From a virus (taxonomy: Duplodnaviria; Caudoviricetes): DNA of 59,827 nt. A program made the position numbers and the translations under genes. This document shows, piece by piece, positions 18,724-43,860 of this stretch. The stretch lies in IMG/VR virus record IMGVR_UViG_3300008450_000043, positions 1 to 59,827 of that record; one strand, given 5' to 3'. How positions within the stretch are numbered: position 1 is the stretch's first letter; each line of letters opens with the position of its first letter. The notes beneath the pieces are model-generated. The model was not told the origin of the DNA. It did not search any database and saw only the letters and a program-made list of their open reading frames with translations.

Positions 18724-18753
18724 CATCAACATCAACATCAACATCAACTTACT

Positions 18754-19503
18754 ATGAGCAAAACAACATTCCGTGGAGTTCGTTTCGATCAATCCCTTGC
18801 CCGGCGCGTGGCGTCTGGTTTCTCCCTCGTGTTCGAGAATGCTGAGCCTTCTCCCGCACAAGCCTCGTCTAGCGGGTCTCGTCTTCGCCTGTCGAAGGCA
18901 CTGACTCGCCAATGGGACACCGCGTTCCTCCACCTCAGTGGAGCATCCGGTGTTCGTAACATCGTCCTCGTCGTGGATATGTCTGGGTCTATGTCAGGCA
19001 TGTGGGAGACTGGTGGCAAGGAGTTCGTGTGGGGTCTGATTCTGCTGGCGCGTGAGGGCGTCATCAACCTGCGCGTGTTCCTGACTGGCAACAAGTTAGC
19101 CGAGATGCCTATCAGCATCCCGTTCATGACGTTCCTCCGACTCAATCCCTACCATGGCAAGGAGGGGTTCCGTGACACCTTGCAACACCGCGTCATTGCT
19201 CCCTTGTTGGAGCAAGCCGATTGCGTGCTGTGCTGGACGGACGGGCAACTCACTGACGGGTGCGTTGACGCGGCTGAGTGGCGGGCTCGTGGGGTCCACC
19301 TGATCGGGGCAACTCTTGCCCGCCCTAAATCAGAGGCCATGGTCCACGCCAAAGACGGCACTGCTAAGGTGATGCCCATCGTTGATGCGATGCGGACTCA
19401 CTTCCACTCTGGCTTCTCCAACCCTGATGCTGTCAATCTTGCCACGCAGATTGCCACCTACATTGCAACCACTGAACCCAAGGAGCTTCGTTCCCACTCA
19501 TGA
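18754..19503 (+). CDS. vWA-domain protein
   Basis: MIDAS VVDMSGSM and WTDG. Confidence 0.85.
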   Translation: MSKTTFRGVRFDQSLARRVASGFSLVFENAEPSPAQASSSGSRLRLSKALTRQWDTAFLHLSGASGVRNIVLVVDMSGSMSGMWETGGKEFVWGLILLAREGVINLRVFLTGNKLAEMPISIPFMTFLRLNPYHGKEGFRDTLQHRVIAPLLEQADCVLCWTDGQLTDGCVDAAEWRARGVHLIGATLARPKSEAMVHAKDGTAKVMPIVDAMRTHFHSGFSNPDAVNLATQIATYIATTEPKELRSHS

Positions 19504-29912: not shown

Positions 29913-30502
29913 GCTGCCTGCGGAACCCAACACCACTCAGGAAACTGCTGCCCCGGCTCTACGCGGGTGGCTGACGCTGGAAGCTGTGTCTTCAACGCTA
30001 ACCGGCAACCACATTGCTGGCAGTTGTGAAGCTTCGAGTGATGCTTAGACCGCCGTTGTGGCGAGACCAAAGCGTCCTGCGCTATCTCAGCAGCAAGCTC
30101 AGGAATGCAGGTTAGGCAGCCCCCTAGTGGCTGATTGCGGGGACAGGCGGCACAAGTGGCCGCTCGTCTCTCAACTTCTTCCATAGGAGCCAACTCCATC
30201 CCAGTCTTCAGCCATGCCGAGAAGGCTTTGCTGGCATTGGACAGCGTCTCCAGAGTCGTCCGACCCGTTGGGACTGTCTCACTGCCCCGGCAATAGGGCT
30301 TTAGCAGCCCCATCTGCATGCAAATATCGTGCTCAATTTCAGCCGGAGGTTGGACTTTGTGCCCATTCTCAGACTGGTAGTTGAGGATTTCTTGAATCAG
30401 TTTTCGGGCGGAGCTCCGACTGGAGAGGGTTCTCCCCGTTACAGGGGAGACCCATCGCCAAGCGCCACCGGGAGGGAGAGGTGCGTTGTGGTTAATCTTC
30501 AT
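29888..30502 (-). CDS. Cys-rich hypothetical protein
   Basis: CAAC, CLTC, CQQCGC, WCW; ATGA overlap with giant gene stop. Confidence 0.7.
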   Translation of the reverse strand: MKINHNAPLPPGGAWRWVSPVTGRTLSSRSSARKLIQEILNYQSENGHKVQPPAEIEHDICMQMGLLKPYCRGSETVPTGRTTLETLSNASKAFSAWLKTGMELAPMEEVERRAATCAACPRNQPLGGCLTCIPELAAEIAQDALVSPQRRSKHHSKLHNCQQCGCRLALKTQLPASATRVEPGQQFPEWCWVPQAAQAGQASS

Positions 30503-33500
30503 TGTTGCCAGTGAGGGAGAAGTTCTCCATCCAAAATGCGACGCTGCAACTTGGATTGCGCGTATTTCCGGGCGGCACTAGATATGCTGTCCAGAGCTTT
30601 TTGGGCGGCTTCTCGTTCTACTTGGCCACGCTCAGCGAACCGAACAAGGTTATTGATGACGTTGCCACTCTGCAACATAGCCGTCATCTGCTCTCCGTAG
30701 AGAATCAGAGCTTCACGGGCAACGTCGGAGTCAAAGCTTGACAGGATAGCCCCGTCTGGGTCGATGCCCGCGGCACGATCTTCAGGGTCCTTCCATGTTT
30801 TGAAGGCCATCTGACTTTCCGGCGGCGACAGGTAAAGGCCCGCGCTGACCAGAGGAGTGATGATCTCATCCGTATGAGGGGACTCCATGTCAGGCAACAA
30901 CCGCTTGGTGAACGGAGCAAACCAGAAGGAGGTGACTTCTTTGCCCCGTGCGTTGAGGATAGCCGGGCGGTCAAAGAGCAGGGAAGAGCCGGGCAGGACG
31001 CTTTGCAAGGCGTCTGACCAAGTCTTAGCCGTCTCGATCATCGGGGTTTCCCCGGTCTCGGAGAGCAAGCCCCGAGTCATATCTTCCACATCCCGCAGGA
31101 TACGGGGGTTGGTGACTCCGCCCACCCATGAGGAAGCCATCTTCATGAGCACCTTATCAAGGCTGGCCCCGCCTTCAGCCCGCCCGAAGAGCAGCTTGCT
31201 AGCATCTTCCAGTCCTTGGAGGGGCTGCTTGGCAAACATTGCCCGAGTCAGCTGAATCATGGAGTTCACGGCGAACTGGGAGGGGCGAACCCTCCGGCCT
31301 TTTTCTTGGGCGTTGATGACTGAATCCGACAGTGCAGCAATGCCACCCAGCAACAGGTTGATTCCGGGCAGGTCCTTCCAGTTCGCGTAGAACGAGCCGA
31401 TCTTCAGCACGTTGGGCTTCCAGAATGGGGCACGCAGACGGAGCTGGTTGCGCTTCTCAGCGTCGGCAGGGCCGTCACCATAGGCAGCAATGAAGGGTTC
31501 TTCATCGTCAGCCATAGCCCGGAACATCTCAAAGACTGCCATGGCCAAGCCAGCTGTCAGGAATGTGGACATGAACCCTTGAGACATGAGCTTGTAGAAC
31601 TCCTGTGAACCACGCTCCACTTGCTGGCGGCGGTAGGTTTCGCTGATCATGCTATCCGGCATCCATGAAGATGGGGACATGTTGTAGGCTCGGAGGAACG
31701 AGACGGGGAAGAACGACATCGCCAACGAGAAGTCGAGCATGTTCGCCAGTGAGCGAGCAAACGGGACCAGCAGAGAGGTTGCCCCTCGGGTCTTGCGTTC
31801 AAGGCTACCAAAGATGCCGTCCATGACCCATCCAGCGAAGCCCTTCGGCTGCGAGGATAGGTTGGCAACATTGGCAGAGATGCGGCCTTCTGTAATGATG
31901 TCAGCCCCGGCGCTCAGGTTCTTGGCAAGAGAGTCCCGGTATTGTTCGAGGAGTTCATTGCGGCGAGCCTCACGCATCAGGGCGGGGTTCTTGGACAGGG
32001 CAAAGCTTGACGCTTCTCCATCCAGCTGGTTCTCAATTTGCCGCATGACAGTCTCTTCTGGGCTGAATGCCTTGCTCAGAAGCTCACGCATCTGGTCAGC
32101 ATCGTAGCCCTGCTTGGTAGCCAAGTGAGCGATAGCCATACGTTGACGGGCCATGTTGGCAGGAACCCCAACAAGGGCATCAATGACCATCATGACACGG
32201 CCAAGCAAAGAGTAGGGCTTGGTGATCTTACCTACCAGTGGCAGGTCACGTTCCAGACGGGAGAGAGACTCGGTTTGCTCAGACTGGAATCGGGTAGAGC
32301 CAGTGAACAGCGCTCGTTTCATCTCCGTGATCGTCTCGGCACGGGTCGCGGGGTCAAGCAGCAGGGCCGATTTGAATATGGTGAATAGATTGCGGGCCAT
32401 CAGGCTGGCACGATTGCCTTTTGGAGCCGTCATAGCGTAGCCAACTGCATTGTTGGTCAGGTCCATGATGGATTGCAGCGAGCCGAAGACAAGGTTGACC
32501 TGCTGTGTGCCGAACCCGGAAAGGATTCCAGCCTTCCACATCGAGGTGGGGACTTCCACGAGGTAGGTCCAGAGTACCTCGGGGTGCTTTTGGAGCAGCC
32601 CCTTGAGGCTATTGGAGCTCACCAGTTGTTTCAAGATGAGGTCTGCAACCTTGCTACTGAGTTCCCGTCCAGCGTCGAGGCGCTGGATAGAGTCCTTCGG
32701 CATAGCATTGATAGCAGCCAAGTCGGCCTCCAGTTGCTCAACGACTTTGGTGTCGTAGGTTGGGAGCTCCAGTGACCGGGCTATTGCAGAGTAGAACTCC
32801 TCAGAACGGAAGGCTCCCATGCGGGCAAACTGTGCCAGCTCTTCCGAGCGGGACAGCTTGTCCACCACAGTAGCGGCAGACGCTGCGAGGTCAGAGCGCT
32901 TGTATCGCTCGATCAATTTCTGGATGTACTTGGCTTTCTCTTCTTCGTAGGCGATCTCGATGTACTTCGCCACTAGCTTAGCCTGTGTCTCGTCCAGCTC
33001 TCCAACTTCCACCAGCATCTTGGTCAGGCTAGCAACGCTGGCAAGTTGGTCAGAGACATGGGCTTTGACTTCCTCACGGAAACGGAAGGATTGACGGACA
33101 AGCTGAGCGGCGTCCTTCATGGGCAGCACTTCAGCACGAGCTCCTTCAAGCAGGGCAAGAGTGCGGGTAAGCTTATCCACCTGTTCCTGAGTTGGAGGCC
33201 CATTGAAGTTGGGGTCCCCTCCGGGAGCAAGCTGCCTGCGGATGTCTGCCATCGAGCTGTCAAAGGCTTGACGTAGGATGTCTGCATCTTCGGCGTTCTG
33301 CATGAAACGACTCCATACAGTGTTTGGAACCTTCTCATTGTCTGGGCTGCCGTCACTCAGCTTGGCGGAAACTTGACGAGAGACTTCAGCCTGAACGCGC
33401 TTAAACCAGTCGTCAAAAGCCCCTTTATCTGCGGGCGGGATACGGCCTTGCAGGCGCTTAGCAACTCGCTTGACCATGACTTCTGCCACAGCTTCAGCCA

Positions 33501-36500
33501 GTTCGTCTCGCGGGCGGCGGCGTTGGGCGTCAGCCAACTCGGCTTCGTCTTGCTCAGCCTCGGCAATATCCTTGTCAGACACGCCTTTCTTCTTGGCCTT
33601 GGCTTTGACTGAAGCCTTGCGGACATCTTCCCCAACCACGCCGTCAACGACACCACCGCTGATCTTGGCGGGGTCACCAAGTTCACGCTCAATCTCTTCC
33701 ACAACCTTATCCACTCCCATGGTTTTGAGAGTGGCCTTGGTGCCGCGGATAAAGGAGGTGCCATAGGTAGCAACAGCGCGGTGAGGGTCGAGGATTTTAT
33801 CCTGTGCGGTTTGAACGGAACGCAAGTTCGCGCCAAAAGCAGAGGCTTCTTTTGTGACTTCGACAAGGATTGCCGCCTCGGCAGCCCGGAAGTTACCCTT
33901 TACATCAGGGTCGGTAGCCTTGATTGCAGCCTGCGTAGTCATTTTAAGAACAATGTTCTTAGCGACGTGCCTGACTCTCTCGGGCTCACTAACGTCATCC
34001 CGAATCTTTGCCGTCAACGCCTTCATATCGTCGCCAGTCATCGGCCCACTGACCGTGTGCTTCTCAACCAAGTCCCCAGCACGTTTAATCAGCTCGGGCT
34101 CAGTCAAAGAGTCATAGTCCACTTCCATATCAGCCAACGCTTCCATGGCTTCGCGGACATCTTTGGCCGCGCCGTCGAACATTCCAGACTCCAAGTCCTT
34201 CTTCGTCCGTTGAGCGGTGCCAAAACGAGCATCCCCATAGGCAGTAGATGCCGCAGCCGTTGCAATGAGACGCTCAGCAATATCGGGGATGCCGCCTGTG
34301 ATTTGATCTACTGTCATGCCGTTGGCGGACAGGAACGAAGCAGTGTTGAGAGCTGCGCGTAGAGACACAGGGTCTGCGGAGGCATTCCAGCGAGCGGCCA
34401 CCCGGCGGAAGTAGGCCGTCAAGTAGGCGAGCACTCGGTTCAAGGAGCGAGGCTCGGTCTTGGTGATGGCCCGGACATCTTCCGTCGTGAACCCCGAGCG
34501 AACCCGCTGGCGGGTCCGGCGAAGGTACTCGTCGGCAAGGATTGCCATGGCTTTGGCCTGCTCAAGCGGCGTCATGTTGGGTCCGTCACCGGCGGCACGA
34601 GCCACTTCTTCTGGAGAAGCGTCGGGTCCAGCAATCGAACGAGCTAGATTTCGGCGTTCTGCTGGGTCCATACCCAGCCCAATACGGATGAGGTCCGTGT
34701 CAGAAAAACGACGGTGAATTTCGAGGTGATCAACCTCTTCCTCAAGCCCAGCACGAAGGCGGCGTTTGATGTCCGCTTCGGACATACCAGCAGTTCTCCA
34801 CTCAGTGACTACCTGAGCTAGATTGTTCACGTCAACGTGGATGACATTCGAGTCACGGTTGCCCGTCACCCAAAGTGTGAGTCCTGTGCCTTCTGGGGCA
34901 ACAGTTGCCTGAAGCGGGGTGTTGCTATCAACTTCCTCCAAGATGGAAGTGACCAAGCCCAAAGCCGCGGCACGTTGTGCGGGGAGAGCCGGAGGAGACC
35001 CAGCGGGTTTCAGAACAACAGAGGCGTTAGGGTTTGTGCCCGGAGAGGAAGTCTGAGGACCTGATACAGGCACTTCATCGTTCGTCACCTCTTCTACCGT
35101 CTGCTCCAGAGTCTTGTCATCGGGGTCTGAGACATCTTCATTAGTCTCGTTTTTAGCCGCGGCAATAGCGGGAGAGGTGGCCTTGATAACGGCAGCCGCA
35201 ACAGGAGTGCCCGACTCAGGCACGAAGAACAGCTTGTTGAGTAGGGCCGCAGTCTTGACTCCGTTGGAGGGGGACAAGGACATCAGTCGGAGCGACTCCA
35301 CCACTGCCGTGTGATACACCGAACCAAGGTTCACCTTGATCTTGGCAGCCGGGTTGAGGAAGTCCATCAGCAGCTGAGCGATGAAGCGGGAAACGCGGGA
35401 CAGAAGTCCTTTGAAACCAGTTCCGCCTGCCGCTTTTTGCTCGTTGAGCGCTCGGACAAAAGACGGGTTGGTGTAAAGACCCATGACAAACTCGCGGACA
35501 TTCTGGGTTTCTTTGGGGAACATATCCCCAAAAAGCTTCACCGCTTCCATACGCAGCTCTTCCAGAGCCACCAGTGTGGGATGAACACCCTCGCCGCGAC
35601 CAAGCGTTTCCAAGGCTTGACCAATACCGCCCTCAACCGCGCTACCCAAGGCACGATTGAGCGCTTCTTGCGTCATACGCTGGAGCATTGCTTGCTGCAC
35701 GTGCTTGGCAAAAGCCTCCATGATACGAGGACTATCCCCTTCAGGGAAGGCGTTGAGGTCCACAATCAACTGGTTGCCTTTCCATGCAACTGGAGTCGAG
35801 GTGTTGCCGTTTGCAACAGCGGAGACAACCACCTCAAAAGAGTAGGACTCCCGAACTTTTTCAAGAAGCTCGGCCAACATTGAAGCAATGGCACCATCTT
35901 TAACTTCCACGGCTGCCTGAGTTGGTGGCGCAAGAAGAGGGATGCGAGCTTGTTGGTAAGCCGTATCAGGGTCTATCCCGGCCTCAATAGCTGCGGTGTA
36001 CCGCGCCATATCGAGAGGCTCACGACGAACAGAAGGCTGGAAACTCTTCGCAGCTTCTGTCCGATTCTTGGCACGGTTGCTGAAGTAGCTCAGCAGGCGA
36101 GTCAACGACTGCGCCGACATCTGCATGGAGCTATCATTATCGTTCCTCCAATTAGTTGTATCTACTCCAAAGCGTTCCAGCTCTTCGCGGAACCGTTGAA
36201 GCGCCTCTACGGAGAACCGTGGGGCGGCAGGGTTCGCAGGCATGTCGAACATAGGACCCAACAGGGCTCTGAGGTTCTCACGAATAGAATCAAAAACCAG
36301 CCGCTCGGCCCCACGCTGAGCTCGGAGACGAGCTGCCTGAAGCGTTTTGGCGTTTTCAATCGTTTGGGTCAGCGTCTCTCGCTCTTGCTCAAGACGCTGC
36401 CTGTATTCTGGAGACAGGTCTGGCCGCCTCAAGTCTTCCTGAATTTGTGCTAAAGCCTCTTGGGCTGTGGGGAGACCTTCAACCGTGGGGGCCAAGAAGG

Positions 36501-39500
36501 GAGACTCAATACCTGAGAGGGTAGCAATCTGATAGCGCACAATATCGAGATGCTCCAGCATCCCCGTGCCACTCGTATTCTTGGCGATCGTCACCATCTC
36601 CTCAAGAGACATCTGGTTGATCTCCCCAGCGCTATAAAGCGGGTTGCCGCTTGGCTTTTGTGTAATTTCGAGAAGTGCCGTCACTGTCTCCTCATGTAGC
36701 CGGACAAGAATGCGGGCAAGGTTGGGGAACTTACGGGCTGTCTGTCCTGAGAATCCAAGACTGTTAACTTTGGGAAGCAGTCTTGATACCTGCTCCATTT
36801 CTACCTCAGTCAGTTCTGGGCCATAAGTTAAGGTGACTTCACCCGTTTGAGATGCAACAGTAAAGGCTGCTCCTCGGCGGTGAAGGTCCAAGATTTGACG
36901 GGCGGTAGCGAGCTCTTCATTACTGGCACCATTTCGACTAAGCACGCGGAGAGTGCGGTCAGGGTCACCGTCTAAGACACGCTCGCTAAGAGCGATGCCC
37001 AGCAGAGACTTCTCATCATTGGTGAGAGGTTCCTCTTCAGCGTCTAGCGCTTCGGGGGCCGCAACGCTACCTGCAAGCAATTCTCCCGTAGAACCGTCAA
37101 CGGGAGCATCCAATGACATCAGGACAGCGTCCCCGCCAAACGGGTCTGCTCGGCGGAGCATCCGGTAAAAGGACCTCACTACTCCCCGCGTTACGAGGTC
37201 AAGATTGATGCTTCCAACACCCTGCTTCTTGCGGAAGGTGTTAATGACTGTCTGCACCACAGCATTCTGCAACCGTCCTGACGCAATAATTCCCGCGAGG
37301 TCAGCATGGCGAGCAATCAGATCAGCCTCGTTTTCGCTCATGTACTCCACGGCTCGTTGATATTGAGCTGCTTCTTCTGCGGCGAATTGTTCCAACTCTG
37401 CCGGGTCTTTGATGTTTTCTGGGACTGGAACGACACTTTCAGGACGCTCTGCCCAGACAGTCGTAGCGAACTGCTTCTCCATTTTACGGACAATCTTGAG
37501 TAGTCGGAGCTGCTCTTGTTTAGCGTCGTCCAGATTTTTAAGCTGGTTGCCCTCACGCTGAAGCGACTGGACTCGACGAGTCACCGCATACAGTTGGTCC
37601 TTGGCTTCAGTCAAGGACATGCCGTACTCCTGCTCTAAAGCGGACAGCTGTTCAGCTATATCAGCTGAACGCTGGCCGATTGGGCGGCGGTCATTCCACA
37701 GTTGAGCATAAGCGTCTGGTCCATCCTCGATGGACACCTCTGCATCAGCCCCCAAGGCGGCAACTTTAACATTCTTCACGAGGCGAGTATTAGGGTCATA
37801 CTCAATATGAGGGTGAACTGCGTCCCCAACTTCAGGCGGGATGAATACAGAGTACCCTTTGGAAATCTGCATAGCCGTGACTTCCGGCACGTTAGTAAAG
37901 AACCCTTGCACGATTACACGCGGGGCTCCTTCAAGTTGTTGAATGATAAAAGTATCGCCGCTGCGCTGGACAACCTCAAAAGTTCCTCCGGGAACGATCA
38001 GGTTATCGCCCACTTTGCGAACTTGGGCAGAACGCACTTCCATCACAGCGCCCCCTACAAGGGCCGCGTGAGCCTTTGCCTCAGCAAGGTCAGTAGTGAC
38101 GTGCTGTGCAGGCATGACTTGGTTCGTTCCCTCTGTGCGAAGGGCATAATAATCCCCGGCCTTGTCGTTTCGGCGTGGGGCTTGCTCATTGTAAGACAGC
38201 ACACGATAAAGCTTGGTCCCTTCTGGGAGAGAATGAACAGGAGACTTTTCCAAGGCGCTGTTTAGGGGCACCGACCCCTTGCCAAGACCTGAAGTCACCA
38301 CCGAAAACCGACGAGACTTATTGTCAGCAAGAACTTGAGCGGCCTCACTACGGAGTTTTGCGGCAGCCTTCTTGTTCTTAGTAGCCGCTGCGGCCTGACG
38401 CAGGGCTTGTTCTTTCTCAAACTCGGCTTTGGTGGCGAACGGCCAGTAAGAAGCCTCTTCCAATTTAGCTTTGTCTTTAGAGCTAAGTTCTCCCTCAGCA
38501 CGAGCGGGCTGTGCGACCTCTTGAGGAATCAAGCGATTGATCGAGGGAAAAAGCCCCTCGCTGTAAAGTTTATCCCGGTCTTTTGCTTTCTCAATTTTGG
38601 AGGGGTCTCCCCGCACAAACTTGGTGGAGTCTCCTTCTACGCGACCCCCAGTCCACAAAGAGGTAGGAGTATCTTCCTCAGCTGGGAAGCGAGCCTGATA
38701 TTCCTCTTGGATGCGGCTCATCACAGCATTGGCAAAGGAAAGATGGCGCGAGATGTCAACGCTCAGATTGAGCGTGTCTAGTTCTTGCTTAGAGATTCCA
38801 AGCTTTGCCGCGGCGGCTTCGCGTTGCTTGCGAATTTTGTCCCGCAACCTAGCCTTATTGACTCGAATGACTGGGCGTCCATCTTCCCAACCCCATTGCA
38901 CAAGCCCGCGGTCAACAGTGTCTTTGACAAAGTTAGGAACCACATAGGCGTCAATTTTGCGGAGTGTTTCTGGGCGAGTATCACCTTCATACGTCCAGTC
39001 GGGAGGAGTCACATTCTCGTCCACTGGAACATCTGTGGCCTCCGTGGCAAGTTCCGCAGCCAAGTCCACTTCGGATAGAGGAGCGCTCACTGCATTAACC
39101 CTACTCAGGTTGGCGATGTCCTGAGTCAAAGTTTGCTTTGCCTGCTCAAACATCCGCCGCTCATTTGGTTTGATCTGTGGGTCTTCCAGCGCTTTCTGAA
39201 CTTGCAGCAACGACCGTTGCAAGTCTGCAACACGGGCGGCTGTTTCAGGGCTTGGGCGCGGACGAGGTGGAGGGGCCTGACGGGCGGCAAACATTGGCGG
39301 GCGCACAACTGCTGCCTGAGTACCCTCAAGCTGGGTAATCAGCTGCGCCATCTTCTGGGTGTTGAAGCCCCCAAGGAAATGCTCCAGAGCATTTGTGTAC
39401 TCTAGCAGAGCTGGGCGAGCCCCGACTAGACCACGGATAAACTTGAGCAGAGCCTTAATCCATTTGGAGAACCCTGTCTTTTGAGGGGCAGTCAGACTGA

Positions 39501-42500
39501 CTAAGTCACTGGTCAACTTCCCTTCTATGATAGCTTGCACCACTTCAGCCATTCTGACATCGTCAGACGTAATTGCGCCGAAGCCCGGGTAGATTTCCTC
39601 CATCACTTTAATGAGGCCCGCGTCTCTTACGACAGGAAGAGCGTCGGCATAAAGCTTGCGAGCTTCTGGGTCTGAGCGAAGCAACAACTCTTCAGCAAAG
39701 TGAACTCCTTCATGGAACAGTACATCTCGCACTGCCGGAGATCCTTCTTCAGCAAGCTCATCGGCAAAGAGCACAATAACCACACCATCCTGAGTCGGGA
39801 CTGTTGCTCCGTATTTGCCCGGAGGAAGAGTCTGCCCCACAAAAGCTTCAGCCTCGGCACGAGTGTTAAAAATGTTCACTGCTCCACCGCCAAGCACGGT
39901 TTCAATCAAGCTGAGTTTGCTCTTAGAAATCGGGCGGCCTTTCTGGGCCTTGACTAGTTTCTCAACCTTTTTGATTGGGTCTCCGGCTTTAGCCTTTGCG
40001 GCTTTGCGGGCCGGAGGAGCGACAACTTCTGTCAAAGTTTTCTGAGCTTCGGCTTCGGGGGCCGGAGACTTAGCGTCTTCGATTGCCTGTAAATCAGCCT
40101 CGACACTCATCAGCTCATCTGTAAGAGCCTCATACTCGCTATCAGAAACAGTGTTTTCGGGGTCAAGGCTGTTAAGCCGATTCCTCAGCTCAGCAGCTTT
40201 ATCTCTGAGCGCCTGCTCGGGAGACTTCGCAGGCGTAGGGGCTGTAACCCCCACGCCCGGAGTTGCAGCTGGAGTTACATTTTCCGCTTGGCCTTGGGCT
40301 TGGCCTTCGACTTGCCCGCTGACGAGAGGGCGATTGCCACCGCCTGTTTCTGCGGCTTGCCTTCCTTCATCATCTTGGACACGTTCTTGCTGACGGTTTT
40401 CTGGGATGTTCCTTTGTATAGAGGCATCGGGTGTTGTGGGTGTTGGTGTTTGTGTTGGTGTTTCTGCCGCAACCGGAGTGGCTGCGGAAGCTGGTGTCTG
40501 CGGGAGTTCAGGCGTAAAGACTTGCTTAGAGTTACTATCGTAGATTGCGACAATTCGGTTTGCCGGAACAAACCCGGGGTTCTCCGCAGTGACTGACCTC
40601 AGCCTACGATACTCATCAAGAGGGATGTCCATGATGAGGACTTTATCCCCAAATTTCTCGCGGCTCATAGGCCCCGCCACGCTTGTATTGAGGCGTTCAG
40701 CGAGGTCTTGATTGTTCCCAAAACTGTCTGTTGTTGCGTCAATAACTCCCTGTTTCGAGTAATCGAAGCGGCCAGACTGCAAGATAGCTCGGATAGATTG
40801 ACCAGAGGTGCCGTGGGTCAAACGAATCATCCCTTCTGGGATAGAGGGGAGAGCCTCCGCAGTGATATTAGCGGGGGGAGTTTCAGGCACTGGAGAGGTA
40901 GTCAGAGCTTCCTCCGAAAATTTAGGGGTAGCTGGAGTAACTGCTTCAGGAGCGGGAGCAGGAGCAGGAGCTGCCGCGAGCGGAAGAGGTTGGAGATTTT
41001 CACCAAAATCTCGCTCGGATAATGTGGCCGGGGTCTCTTCTCCAAAAAGCGCGGCAATGTCTTCTATCCGAACATCCGTGTAGGAGACCGGGATTGCCGG
41101 ATTGTTGGGGCGCTCTCGTGTAAGGGCTGCTTCACCGGGCAGAGCTTCTCCAAAACGGTAATAACGCACCCGCCCTTCAGGGACAGGGGGCTCTTCAAAA
41201 ACTTTGGGCTCGGGAGCAGGAGCAGGAGCTTCAACAGGAGCTTCAACAGGAGCTTCCTCCGCAGGAGGAGCCGCCGCGGCTGCCGGTTTCCTTAGCCCGC
41301 CCTGAATCAAGTTATTGGCAACTTCAGGGGTGAATTGAGCAATGTCCGCTTGAGTGTATCCAAGCTCAGCCAGCTGACGATTCATGTCTTTCGTCACAAA
41401 CAGGCCAACGCCACTCGCAGGAGGGGCTGCCGGAGCAGGGGCCTCAGCCGGACGAGTTGCCGCACGTGGGGCAGGGGCTGGAGGAGTTGCCTCAGCAACA
41501 GGCGTCGGGGCCGCTGCGGTTGGAGCCTCACCCGGACGAGTTGCTGCACGTGGGGCAGGGGCTGGAGGTGGCGCTTCAGCAGGCGCAGCAGTTTCAACAA
41601 CTGGGGGCTTCCGCAGTCCTGATTGAATCAAATCCGTTGCCGCTTGAGGGGTAAGCTGATTGATGTCGGCTTGCGTGTACCCAAGATCAGCAAGCTGTTG
41701 CCTCATGTCCCGCGTCACCATCATCGGGAAGCTGACCCCAGAAGTAGGAGGTGCTTCCTCAACAGGAGCAAGTCCAGCAGCAAGCCTTGCCGCAGCGGTC
41801 CGCTCAGCCAATTCACCAGCCTGCTTACGCAACTCAGCTGCGGTCTGCGGCGAGCCTGTTTCTTCAAGCCCTTTGCTGGCAGACAGAAGATCAGCCACGG
41901 GTTTGGCCCGCAAGGCAGCCTGCTTCTCCGCCGAGTAGTTGGCAGCCGCTTTGACCCCGCCAAAGAAACCACCCAAGAACCCACCCCACGCACCAGACTC
42001 AAACACGTCCGACGCAATGTCTCCAATAGACCGGTTCGGGTCGTACGTCATCTTGTCAACGAGCCCATTGACCAACGAGTCTGACGCTTCCTCAATCGCT
42101 TCGGGGACCACTTCTTTGCCAGCTGTCTTGAAAAGATAAACGGCAAAGTTGTCTTTGAGGGCCTTGGCTGTGCCACGGCTTACGCCGCGCAAAGTGCCTG
42201 AACCTGCAAGGGCAGCTTCACCTGTGTCTCCTCCCAGCTTGTTGCCAGCCCACGTCACAGCCATGGTGACGAACCCACGGCGCAAGGCTTGATAGGTAGC
42301 GGTGTCCACGGCGGTCTTCTCTGCTTGAGCCAGCTTGGCCTCATACTCAGGGTCCTCTTTATCGAGCGTGGAAGACAAATCTGAGAGGACTTGATCTCGA
42401 ATCTCAGGATAGGAGCTGCCAGCAGCCTGCAACCCTGAAGCAAGAACGACAGCTGCCTGACCTCCCGCAGAGTGGATAGCCTGCTCTCGGAGCAACATCT

Positions 42501-43860
42501 TAGCGACTGGAGCAACTTCAGCTTCAGCGAGCCCGAGGGTCTTGGCAATTTGCCCGGCAGTCTGCTTCTCGGCAAGCAAGGCCCGGATTCGGGGAAGTTG
42601 CAGCCCCACACGTGAGGCAGCGCCACTGGCAAGAGAAGACGCAGCTCGGCCTGTCAGGGCAAACCCTGCACGAGCAGCGGTGCGGGCCGCTGCACCAGAA
42701 ACAAGGGCTCCAGCACCCCGTCCAACAGGACCTAGTGCAACAAGCGGAGCCATCTGGAGAACTTGGCTGGACGCCTGAGAGGCAAGAGTTGCCCCACCAA
42801 TGTTCTTTGAAGCCTCCCCAAGCTCACCAAGTTGTTGAGTTGCAGCCGTCAAGCGGTTCTCGTCCATCTCATCTGCCAGCCCCGCTAGAGACTTCAGGCC
42901 ATAGTACTGCTGCACCAAAGAAGTTCCGGCCATGCGGGCACCAAGGAAGGTCTGCTTCATCGGGTTTTTCCACCAGTGGTCATTCTGCTTGCGCCACTTC
43001 TCCACAATGTCGGCTTCTGTGGCCTGTGGATTGCGGGAGAGTTCATAGTCCCGCATCTTGGTGAAGTCGTTGCCAATGCCAATAAGCCCCTCACCGTACG
43101 TGCTCTCCGTCTTGAGCATGTTGTCAGAAACCGAAGCAGCTACCTGATCACGAAGCTCCCCCAACTCAGCCATCGCTCGGATTTTGGCGTCACGGTCCAG
43201 AGAAGATTCTGCAACAGCTTTCTTGTACTTATCTCGGTCGAGAACTAGCGAGGGGGAAGCCACAAAACGTCCGTTGAAGATTGCGAAATCTTCCTCGTCT
43301 TGGAAAACTTTGCGCAACGTGTCGCGCTCTTTTTCTTCAGGGGCAGCAATAAGTCCTTCGACCACCCCCGGGAGTTGGGCGGTTGCCCCAGCGGCGGGCG
43401 AAGCTGCCGCCTGAGCTAAGTCGAGCCCTAGTGTGGCGAGTTGGGCGATTGCCCCAGCGGCGGGCGAAGCTGCCGCCTGAGCTAAGTCGAACCCTAGTGT
43501 GGTGGCGTCAGTAAGAGGTGCCAGAGGTTTGCGAGACAAACTGTCTTGAAGCAGCTTCTGACGGGACTCTTCTTCAGCGCGATACTGCTCCACAGAGCGA
43601 TCGGCGTCTTGTTGCCATGTAGGAGAGCCACTCAATTCAGCGGCTTTGCGGCGAGAGAATACTTGAAACCGGTCAAAATCCTCCCGCGTAAAGGCATTTT
43701 CATCCTTTAGCGAAGCATCCAGCAGCATGTTGCGCCAGTTGTTGAAAGCCGCAAGTTGAGTGGGTTTATCCGCAGCTACAAACTGAGGGTCACTTTCAAC
43801 TTCTCCCCAAGAAGGGATTTGACTAAGAGGCAACGTGGAAGAAGCAGGAGGATTGGGCAT
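30499..43860 (-). CDS. Giant (4453 aa) polyvalent / internal virion ejection protein
   Basis: 13.4-kb ORF at end of structural arm; HGT-type ART-like segment, LYR-type ART-like segment, HEGVH zincin, N.REF...NP motif, LPD38/gp16-like C-terminus. Confidence 0.85.
40275..40427 (-). CDS. Overprinted 50-aa basic protein inside the giant gene (alternative frame)
   Basis: [41 protein letters not shown]...; preceded by A/C-rich leader like other genes of this phage. Confidence 0.7.
43373..43502. repeat. 66-bp tandem duplication near 5' end of giant gene
   Basis: TLG(F/L)[13 protein letters not shown](I/T)AQL twice, near-identical DNA. Confidence 0.85.

Follow-up and report, generated by a model that had tools for sequence, protein, structure and literature searches.

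A small gene of a common phage family probably nested as a second coding frame in the linker of a giant late gene

The nested small gene and its giant host gene

The DNA analysed here (the window) is the entire virus record IMGVR_UViG_3300008450_000043 (Duplodnaviria; Caudoviricetes), which is 59827 bases long and estimated to be 91% complete. On its minus strand, a giant open reading frame (ORF) of 4453 amino acids (aa), located at 30499..43860 in a late block, contains a second, small gene at 40275..40427 that begins with the ATG at 40427 and runs through 50 codons to a TAA stop at 40275-40277. The small gene, a member of the family phrog_2423, lies entirely within the giant ORF (43860-30499), occupies giant residues 1145-1195 and is read in the +1 frame, one base downstream of the giant frame (the giant frame is accordingly the -1 frame of the small one), with the giant codon 1145 (GAT for Asp, 40428-40426) contributing the A and the T of the small ATG. 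The whole of one coding sequence (CDS) is therefore contained in another on the same strand and in a different frame, which makes it an out-of-frame embedded gene. An earlier reading of the letters alone (the original prediction) had placed a 50-aa peptide in a same-strand alternative frame of the 4453-aa gene, and translation of the ORF gave exactly that peptide; the strand, left unnamed at the time, is the minus strand.

The small gene exists as a single copy in the whole 59827-base record, and one copy per genome was also found in G001 and G002, two further phages with a nested copy. Its product is strongly basic (isoelectric point (pI) 10.8, with 14 Lys and Arg versus one Asp or Glu), and the AlphaFold2 model has helices at residues 9-21 and 26-37 (predicted local distance difference test score, 83.4), so that the protein is predicted to be a two-helix hairpin with a Lys-rich tail. 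Fifteen ORFs of at least 30 aa were listed around the locus, and an open alternative frame of 50 codons is ordinary here; it is the homology to phrog_2423, and not the length of the open frame, that makes the small gene more than a chance occurrence.

The family phrog_2423 and its usual form

In a profile search, the small protein matched phrog_2423 over its full length (E-value = 9e-19, 68.2 bits; residues 1-48 on positions 1-48 of 52), and hundreds of homologues were recognized, which bears out the original prediction that this is a small phage protein normally standing alone. All 11 invariant and eight nearly invariant columns of a 50-sequence family alignment are retained in the window protein, and the family-conserved residues M1, L3, N15, P25-Q-K-Q-A29 and A31-I-A33 are all present, Met1 being invariant across the family. 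Of the pattern matches collected, tblastn confirmed at least 573 of 600 in viral contigs and at least 413 of 598 in metagenome contigs. A Pfam search of the window protein gave no family at E-values up to 1; the gathering score of DUF6496 (PF20106) was not reached, and no match to the ArfA (PF03889) segment KKGKGSYxRK was found in it. A longer relative, P0153, scored 25.6 (cut-off 24) against DUF6496 at model positions 34-58, and a DUF6496 cluster stood at rank 25 in the Atlas, so the link from phrog_2423 to DUF6496 is a distant one only. No description of the family, its motifs or DUF6496 was found in the main texts of the literature searched.

The family usually takes the form of a stand-alone late gene for 42-60 aa (about 47-58 aa in GenBank phages), an arrangement that is typical rather than formally defined and that the window copy does not share. 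Such genes are found in Pseudomonas phage O4, downstream of large proteins and an endolysin, in Burkholderia phage BCSR129, downstream of a 'minor capsid protein', and in Vibrio phage BD1, and the copy in Prochlorococcus phage MED4-184 is unannotated. In all, 134 unique non-nested family copies were examined. The -1 frame was open across the small gene in only two of the 51 unique short stand-alone genes in viral contigs.

Recurrence of the nested arrangement

A search with the small protein alone revealed four other contigs in which a family member is nested in a long ORF on the same strand, namely G001 (3636-aa ORF; small gene near residue ~1377), G002 (1271-1284-aa ORF), L099 (= L173; 2264 codons) and L170 (1614 codons). 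When the alignment of giant-frame segments (A1) was used as a pattern, 11 more viral loci were obtained, 10 of which are nested (L090/91, L092, L093-95, L096/97 and L098, comprising five distinct small genes, and L099 again), and one of which, L100, is an in-frame fusion. The unique nested loci number ten (the window, L087, L089, L090, L092, L093, L096, L098, L099 and L170), and all of the nested cases are contigs of uncultivated phages; counts over these related sequences do not represent independent events. The ATG, the open frame and the stop of the small gene are intact in all ten, the relative frame is the same, and the giant frame is open across the small gene in every one. Stops in this frame among relatives, which the original prediction had named as the evidence that would speak against a functional gene, occur in none of them.

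The giants that carry the small gene are diverse. A profile search with giant residues 950-1650 of the window yielded one true relative, P0003 (4259 aa), which is 60-68% identical on both sides of the overlap and continuous across it; reasoning from the protein alone, its small frame was judged compatible. Other giants (P0036, P0040, P0056, P0068 and P0070) match only at the overlapped segment. One mosaic network connects L090 (= P0068), L092, L095, P0036, P0040, P0070 and L096 (~P0056), and in these mosaic giants the similarity breaks near the cassette. The window and P0003 constitute a second group with faint links only to this network, and the giants of G001, G002, L098 and L099 have nothing detectable in common with the others outside the overlap. 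No GenBank phage showed DNA similarity to 39000-42000 of the window or, by tblastn, the giant-frame segment, and no close relative was confirmed in searches of viral contigs with the giant flanks or of metagenome contigs with the P0003 piece.

Selection on the small frame

Over the first 34 codons, which are free of gaps, in nine nested loci, the mean number of amino-acid differences was 8.5 in the small frame versus 16.2 in the giant frame, and the small frame was the less changed in all 36 pairs; five non-overlapping pairs differed at 2 versus 7, 3 versus 12, 7 versus 21, 11 versus 17, and 12 versus 25 residues (small versus giant). Nucleotide differences at the first, second and third positions of the small codons averaged 0.245, 0.170 and 0.412, and those between the window and L096 were 2, 2 and 13, respectively; least change is seen at the position that serves as wobble base in the giant frame. 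In a DNA alignment of five loci, an island of conservation starts at the small ATG and fades after about 120 nucleotides (nt), and the flanks of the small CDS could not be aligned between nested loci. Because of the excess of third-position changes, the smaller number of amino-acid changes and the island that begins at the ATG, the small gene is under purifying selection inside the giants, and since many synonymous sites have changed, the conservation does not merely reflect recent transfer. In this pair of frames nearly every site that is synonymous in the small gene is nonsynonymous in the giant one, which gives overlapping-gene estimates of the ratio of nonsynonymous to synonymous substitution (of the OLGenie type) low power on 10 short sequences. 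The functional nested gene that had been proposed is thus backed by comparative evidence, namely the intact frame in ten of ten loci and the signature of purifying selection.

Constraint on the giant frame

Unexpectedly, the giant frame also seems to be constrained, in a core at 40324..40356 on the minus strand (placed by hand from script offsets) that corresponds to small codons 25-34. In the nested copies, the third positions of small codons 28-33 are nearly fixed (CAG GCG GTG GCA ATC GCC) in contigs of 40-65% G+C content, whereas all bases are freely used at these positions in the 134 non-nested genes. Third-position diversity in nested versus non-nested copies was 0.58 versus 0.63 in codons 2-13 and 0.49 versus 0.64 in codons 14-24, and fell to 0.23 versus 0.63 (10 nested and 134 non-nested genes) in codons 25-34. 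A caution against this result is that L090-L098 were found by way of the giant-motif pattern, so that their conservation of the motif is partly circular. The test was repeated on the five nested loci found without the giant motif (the window, L087, L089, L099 and L170), and the diversity at codons 2-13, 14-24 and 25-34 was 0.65, 0.63 and 0.25, respectively; none of 10000 random sets of five non-nested genes was as low at codons 25-34 (minimum 0.31), and at the protein level the five are no closer kin than random sets (12.7 versus 10.9 differences per 38). Each of these sites is at the same time the first base of a giant codon, in the stretch translated as AE[TA]GGGNRP, and the motif GGG[ND]R[PV] is found in seven of the 10 nested copies and in none of the 134 non-nested ones. 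The overlapped giant segment is acidic (pI 4.4). Since it is only in nested copies that synonymous change is nearly absent from codons 25-34, the giant-frame segment is probably under selection as well. The overlapped segment, originally taken for a disordered linker, is not a passive one, as the giant reading AE[TA]GGGNRP is conserved through the small gene's synonymous sites, again in nested copies only.

The constraint may act either on the AE[TA]GGGNRP peptide or on the nucleic acid itself, as an RNA hairpin or as a recombination joint between mosaic giants. The latter alternative, which we consider unlikely though the strongest of the rivals, draws on a run of ~24 nt that is nearly identical in phages of 40-65% G+C and could form a small hairpin, on the break of similarity near the cassette in the mosaic giants, and on sequencing run X16, in which a 400-base contig (40244-40643) matches the window at every base and a second contig diverges directly after the small stop (21 differences and a 6-base insertion within 40090-40273). 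These X16 contigs, on which the comparison is based, hint that the giant linker varies while the cassette next to it is conserved. However, the predicted core hairpin is weak (-10.75 kcal/mol) and gains no support from covariation, as its pairs never vary; the frozen core has no match in Rfam; the changes that do occur in it are mostly conservative in the giant peptide (T/A, N/D and G/R); and selection on the first positions of the giant codons explains the pattern simply. A constraint on the giant peptide accordingly remains the preferred explanation of the frozen core.

Leader and expression of the small gene

The small gene is preceded on the minus strand by a leader (40428..40466) that is rich in A and C, depleted of G and unstructured, and that probably serves as a translation initiation region. 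The bases before the small ATG are ...ACACCAACACAAACACCAACACCCACAACACCCG-ATG, which the giant frame reads as a Thr/Pro/Gln linker followed by Asp. Among the 13333 30-nt windows of the giant sense strand, 12 have one G or none, and all of them lie at 40426-40466; of the 198 ATGs in any frame of the giant gene, the small ATG is the only one with two or fewer G in the preceding 30 nt. The minimum free energy (MFE) of folding from -40 to +20 is -1.5 kcal/mol, against a mean of -14.85 (standard deviation 4.23) along the giant gene, and a fraction of only 0.0002 of 4434 windows folds as weakly. Likewise, 27 putative gene starts of this phage have no Shine-Dalgarno (SD) sequence and are preceded by leaders rich in A and C. 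Their median G count per 30 nt upstream is 4, compared with 8.2 on average in the genome, and their leaders fold weakly, the median MFE being -6.1 (background -14.25, standard deviation 4.88). The original prediction, according to which the leader mirrors the SD-less leaders of this phage and encodes a Thr/Pro linker of the giant, thus agrees with the G content, the fold and the giant-frame reading. An extreme case of the G-poor, SD-less leaders of this phage precedes the ORF starting at 18754, where positions 18724-18753 form a tandem CATCAA repeat (catcaacatcaacatcaacatcaac...).

Extreme G depletion was also found before the nested ATG in L090, L092, L095 and L096 (0.0003-0.011 of windows), and five of the ten nested leaders rank among the lowest 0.03-1.1% for G content. 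L087 and L098 have instead an AAGGAG box at the right distance (AGGAG 5-16 nt upstream), a feature shared by only three of the 193 internal ATGs in L087 and one of the 17 in L098. The small gene thus appears to have its own start signal inside the giant gene, a G-poor, unstructured leader in the window and an AAGGAG box in L087 and L098. A scan revealed neither a sigma-70-like promoter nor a convincing terminator near the small gene. Because of these leader features and the lack of a promoter, internal initiation on the giant mRNA is the best-supported mechanism, and the small gene is probably expressed in this way.

In the mechanism that we propose, ribosomes would start at the ATG at 40427 on the late mRNA of the giant gene, and the preceding 39 nt, G-free and unstructured like the SD-less leaders of the phage, would be their landing site. 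The same 39 nt spell the Thr/Pro/Gln linker, so that one stretch would serve both products, and in nested relatives from SD-using phages an AAGGAG box would take the place of the G-poor leader. Since a Thr/Pro/Gln linker upstream of the ATG recurs in most of the cassette-bearing giants, one run of bases seems to act both as linker and as landing site. If so, the coding sequence of a linker can also be a place where ribosomes land independently of an SD sequence.

The small frame might alternatively be reached by a +1 (or -2) ribosomal frameshift, which would yield a 1144-residue fragment of the giant ending in the small domain. The small frame of the window is indeed open for 48 codons upstream of its ATG, and the small domain occurs in frame at the C-terminal end of the longer proteins P0149, P0157 and L039. 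We nevertheless regard a frameshift as very unlikely, as the upstream open stretch is only seven codons long in G002, nine in L090 and four in L098, the ATG is kept in all ten nested loci (and Met1 throughout the family), and the leaders resemble initiation regions; no known slippery motif was recognised in the leader by eye, a formal search not having been made. In P0149, P0157 and L039 the C-terminal small domain has retained an internal Met-Pro-Leu, and these proteins may represent in-frame nested starts rather than true fusions.

Origin of the overlap

The original prediction had the small gene overprinted inside the giant one. The direction seems to be the reverse, as the small gene is the old and widespread one, and it is the giant frame that runs over it. 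The small gene would be ancestral, and a neighbouring large late gene would have come to read through it in the -1 frame. In nine stand-alone loci (L045, L058, L063, L066, L070, L028, L113, L137 and L165), a long upstream gene of 181-703 codons in the same -1 frame stops 3-6 codons into the small gene. Such loci may represent a state that preceded the nesting, and because these genes end where they do, the read-through could have started by the loss of one stop. A split ancestor was also sought, and no homology was found between the flanking ORFs of stand-alone loci and the giant proteins. In six other stand-alone loci of ~50-55% G+C (L124, L129, L130, L164, L050 and L042), a -1 frame of ~115-240 codons is open across the small gene, which may be due to chance or be a small-scale version of the nesting.

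A DNA tree was built from 144 unique small genes (114 columns) and is poorly resolved; on it, the nested state changes four times, versus a mean of 9.8 for shuffled labels (none of 500 shuffles was as low), and the well-supported branches force only two changes. These counts suit a single origin or a few, with the nested gene then persisting for long or being passed between giants, better than many independent events. In the alternative history, the cassette would have moved between mosaic giant genes.

Weight of the evidence

Very probably, in short, the small gene is genuine and separately translated, sits out of frame (+1) in a linker between domains of a giant gene in a presumed virion block, and forms with it a conserved dual-coding cassette. 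It would represent a natural, replicated case of two proteins sharing one sequence in several lineages of uncultivated phages. Several points weigh against this reading. The support for translation of the small gene is comparative only, and the contigs from RNA libraries over 40396-40690, which do not reveal the strand, could derive from DNA. The DNA of a Thr/Pro/Gln linker is poor in G in any case, and the leader could arise simply as its by-product; L089, L099 and L170 show no strong leader signal. In addition, seven of the ten nested small genes are close together on the short-alignment DNA tree, and the recurrence may therefore reflect one or two origins, with shared ancestry inflating some of the counts.

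Two other explanations of the small ORF as such, both highly improbable, have to be weighed against a genuine nested gene. The first is that it is a decaying relic or a chance ORF without a function of its own, swallowed at a gene fusion. Alternative-frame ORFs of such size are common in this genome of 55% G+C, and the upstream genes that end 3-6 codons into the small gene in nine stand-alone loci indicate that fusion is easy. However, the full-length family match with every invariant residue, the ten intact copies among ten unique nested loci, the third-position excess and a number of amino-acid changes half that of the giant frame, and its status as the sole copy in the genome already contradict this explanation. 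The second, that the 4453-codon ORF is an assembly or sequencing artefact joining two genes around a normal stand-alone small gene, is prompted by the metagenomic derivation of the record and by a giant protein without a family match, and is opposed by the recurrence of a 2-kb stretch at a word share of 0.98-1.00 in 16 runs (freshwater or fungus metagenome labels; 13 studies, P1-P13), some of which may be source samples, by a Logan contig of 10822 bases that covers 39400-41252 without any difference, by the continuity of P0003 (4259 aa) across the same place, and by nine other contigs with the same continuous frame.

Possible function of the products

The function of the small protein was approached through its fusions and neighbours. 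In gp28 of the Acinetobacter phage AP22 (441 aa; L181:4001-5326), which its own record annotates as 'head maturation protease', residues 1-41 are a divergent small domain with the same Met-Pro-Leu start (hhalign against the family profile, 97.4%, E-value = 9.5e-12), and in L100 the N-terminus of a 535-aa protein bears the small domain as an in-frame fusion. P0085, a fusion protein, matched 64 Acinetobacter phage records by tblastn, and among the matches listed, query residues 1-87 were aligned at ~34-36% identity. The 25 upstream neighbours of stand-alone genes include three head-morphogenesis or minor-head proteins (MuF-like), two portal proteins and one or two major head proteins. The cassette-bearing giants P0036, P0162, P0163 and P0068 contain ResIII/Sno-type helicase and ART-PolyVal domains, hallmarks of the polyvalent proteins for which Iyer et al. 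(2017, PMC5512222) predicted packaging and injection. Because of the in-frame fusions to the head maturation protease and the head-gene neighbours, a role in the head interior is favoured, and it is plausible, if tentative, that the small protein is a basic protein of the head interior acting with packaged proteins or DNA. In the scheme proposed here, this small basic helical-hairpin protein would work alongside packaged proteins within or at the interior of the head, which is the weakest step of the scheme; the DNA-condensing role put forward in the original prediction would be compatible with it. A very common small phage protein would in this way be tied to head proteins and to giant packaged proteins, a first functional handle on it.

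Three further results tell against a head-interior role. The neighbours are mixed and also include endolysins and tail-fibre assembly proteins; neither a PDB profile search nor Foldseek with the AlphaFold2 model gave a match at an E-value below 1; and in 34 of 89 longer homologues (precomputed Pfam) an ArfA domain directly follows the small domain, which hints at the ribosome rather than the capsid. The ArfA segment was confirmed in three of them (26.9-34.4 bits, cut-off 25.5), with a third basic module following. A ribosome- or RNA-directed role of the small protein is on the whole rather doubtful. P0072, P0085, P0092, P0122 and P0132 are proteins of 136-155 aa composed of three basic modules, namely the small domain, an ArfA-type and a phrog_17747-type module. 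Phage-borne proteins resembling ribosome-rescue factors seem little studied; a pelagiphage gene annotated as ArfA is reported to be expressed early and late (PMC12753301).

A broader and more speculative proposal, which we put forward as improbable, is that the overlap is a functional unit travelling between giant virion genes: at AE[TA]GGGNRP, as a site of processing or recognition, the giant would be split or targeted while the head assembles; the small basic protein would be the partner of the giant within the head; and the near-identical core of 24-30 nt would be the exchange joint of the mosaic giants. If this were true, one stretch of 150 nt would hold a gene together with a signal-bearing linker, and would serve both for the landing of ribosomes and as a joint for recombination.

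Comparison with known systems

The out-of-frame embedded genes that are known from phages are pairs specific to one locus, as exemplified by Rz1 inside Rz (the spanin genes of phage lambda) and by 18.7 in 18.5 of T7. As in Rz1/Rz, a short gene lies wholly in a longer gene on the same strand and in the +1 frame, with its own start signal, and both are late genes. The products of Rz and Rz1, however, are partners in one machine and the embedded gene is locus-specific, whereas the embedded gene of the window belongs to a family that is free-standing in hundreds of phages and is contained in a giant multi-domain gene. Unlike the situation in Rz1/Rz, the nesting recurs across otherwise unrelated giants, both frames seem to be selected at the same codons, and the leader doubles as a linker. 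What appears to be new here is that a widespread free-standing family has been taken into giants with selection on both frames. Gene callers will miss such genes, and the only family copy of this genome is invisible to standard annotation.

Compared with phrog_2423, the window copy is a full-length match of the same length class with the same invariant residues; typical members stand alone, whereas the window copy is nested, with its synonymous sites at codons 25-34 frozen. In AP22 gp28 the domain is fused in frame to a head protein of 441 aa, in contrast to the separate 50-aa product predicted for the window. The proteins made up of the small domain, ArfA and phrog_17747 (P0072, P0085 and P0132) begin with the same small domain and continue with the ArfA-type KKGKGSYxRK and the third basic module, neither of which exists in the window protein. 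Polyvalent proteins of phages and conjugative elements, as characterized by Iyer et al. (2017, PMC5512222), are giant multi-domain proteins among virion genes, which the window giant may resemble; they differ in that the window giant matches no Pfam family above the cut-off. In the text of that paper the word 'overlapping' is absent, and 'nested' and 'embedded' are used for other things; the main texts of the literature searched yielded no description of the arrangement seen here, of genes nested in polyvalent proteins or of the motifs GGGNRP and KQAVAIA.

Other features of the giant gene

The giant protein has no significant match in Pfam (the best one, at an E-value of 0.0059, is below the cut-off) and none in PHROGs, and an HExxH motif is visible in it. 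The minus-strand block to which it belongs includes a match to a tail-protein PHROG; no capsid, portal or terminase gene was identified. After the small stop, the giant translation continues on the minus strand with a linker rich in Pro, Thr and Ala at 40222..40274 (approximate, placed by hand). Upstream of the Thr/Pro/Gln linker, a domain of giant residues ~1003-1139 is encoded at 40444..40854 on the minus strand (by hand from script offsets). It has dozens of stand-alone relatives of ~170 aa (most of 68 matches are proteins of 130-290 aa, aligned at query residues ~54-190) and also exists within the other giants P0010, P0014, P0021, P0024, P0042 and P0064; a search through P0004 assigned it to no PHROG or Pfam family. 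In the N-terminal part of the giant, a domain of ~40-55 aa is found twice, at 41599-41766 and 41287-41403 on the minus strand (residues ~699-754 and 820-858), and one of the two copies is 89% identical to a segment of the otherwise unrelated L092 giant, a likely sign of module exchange between giants.

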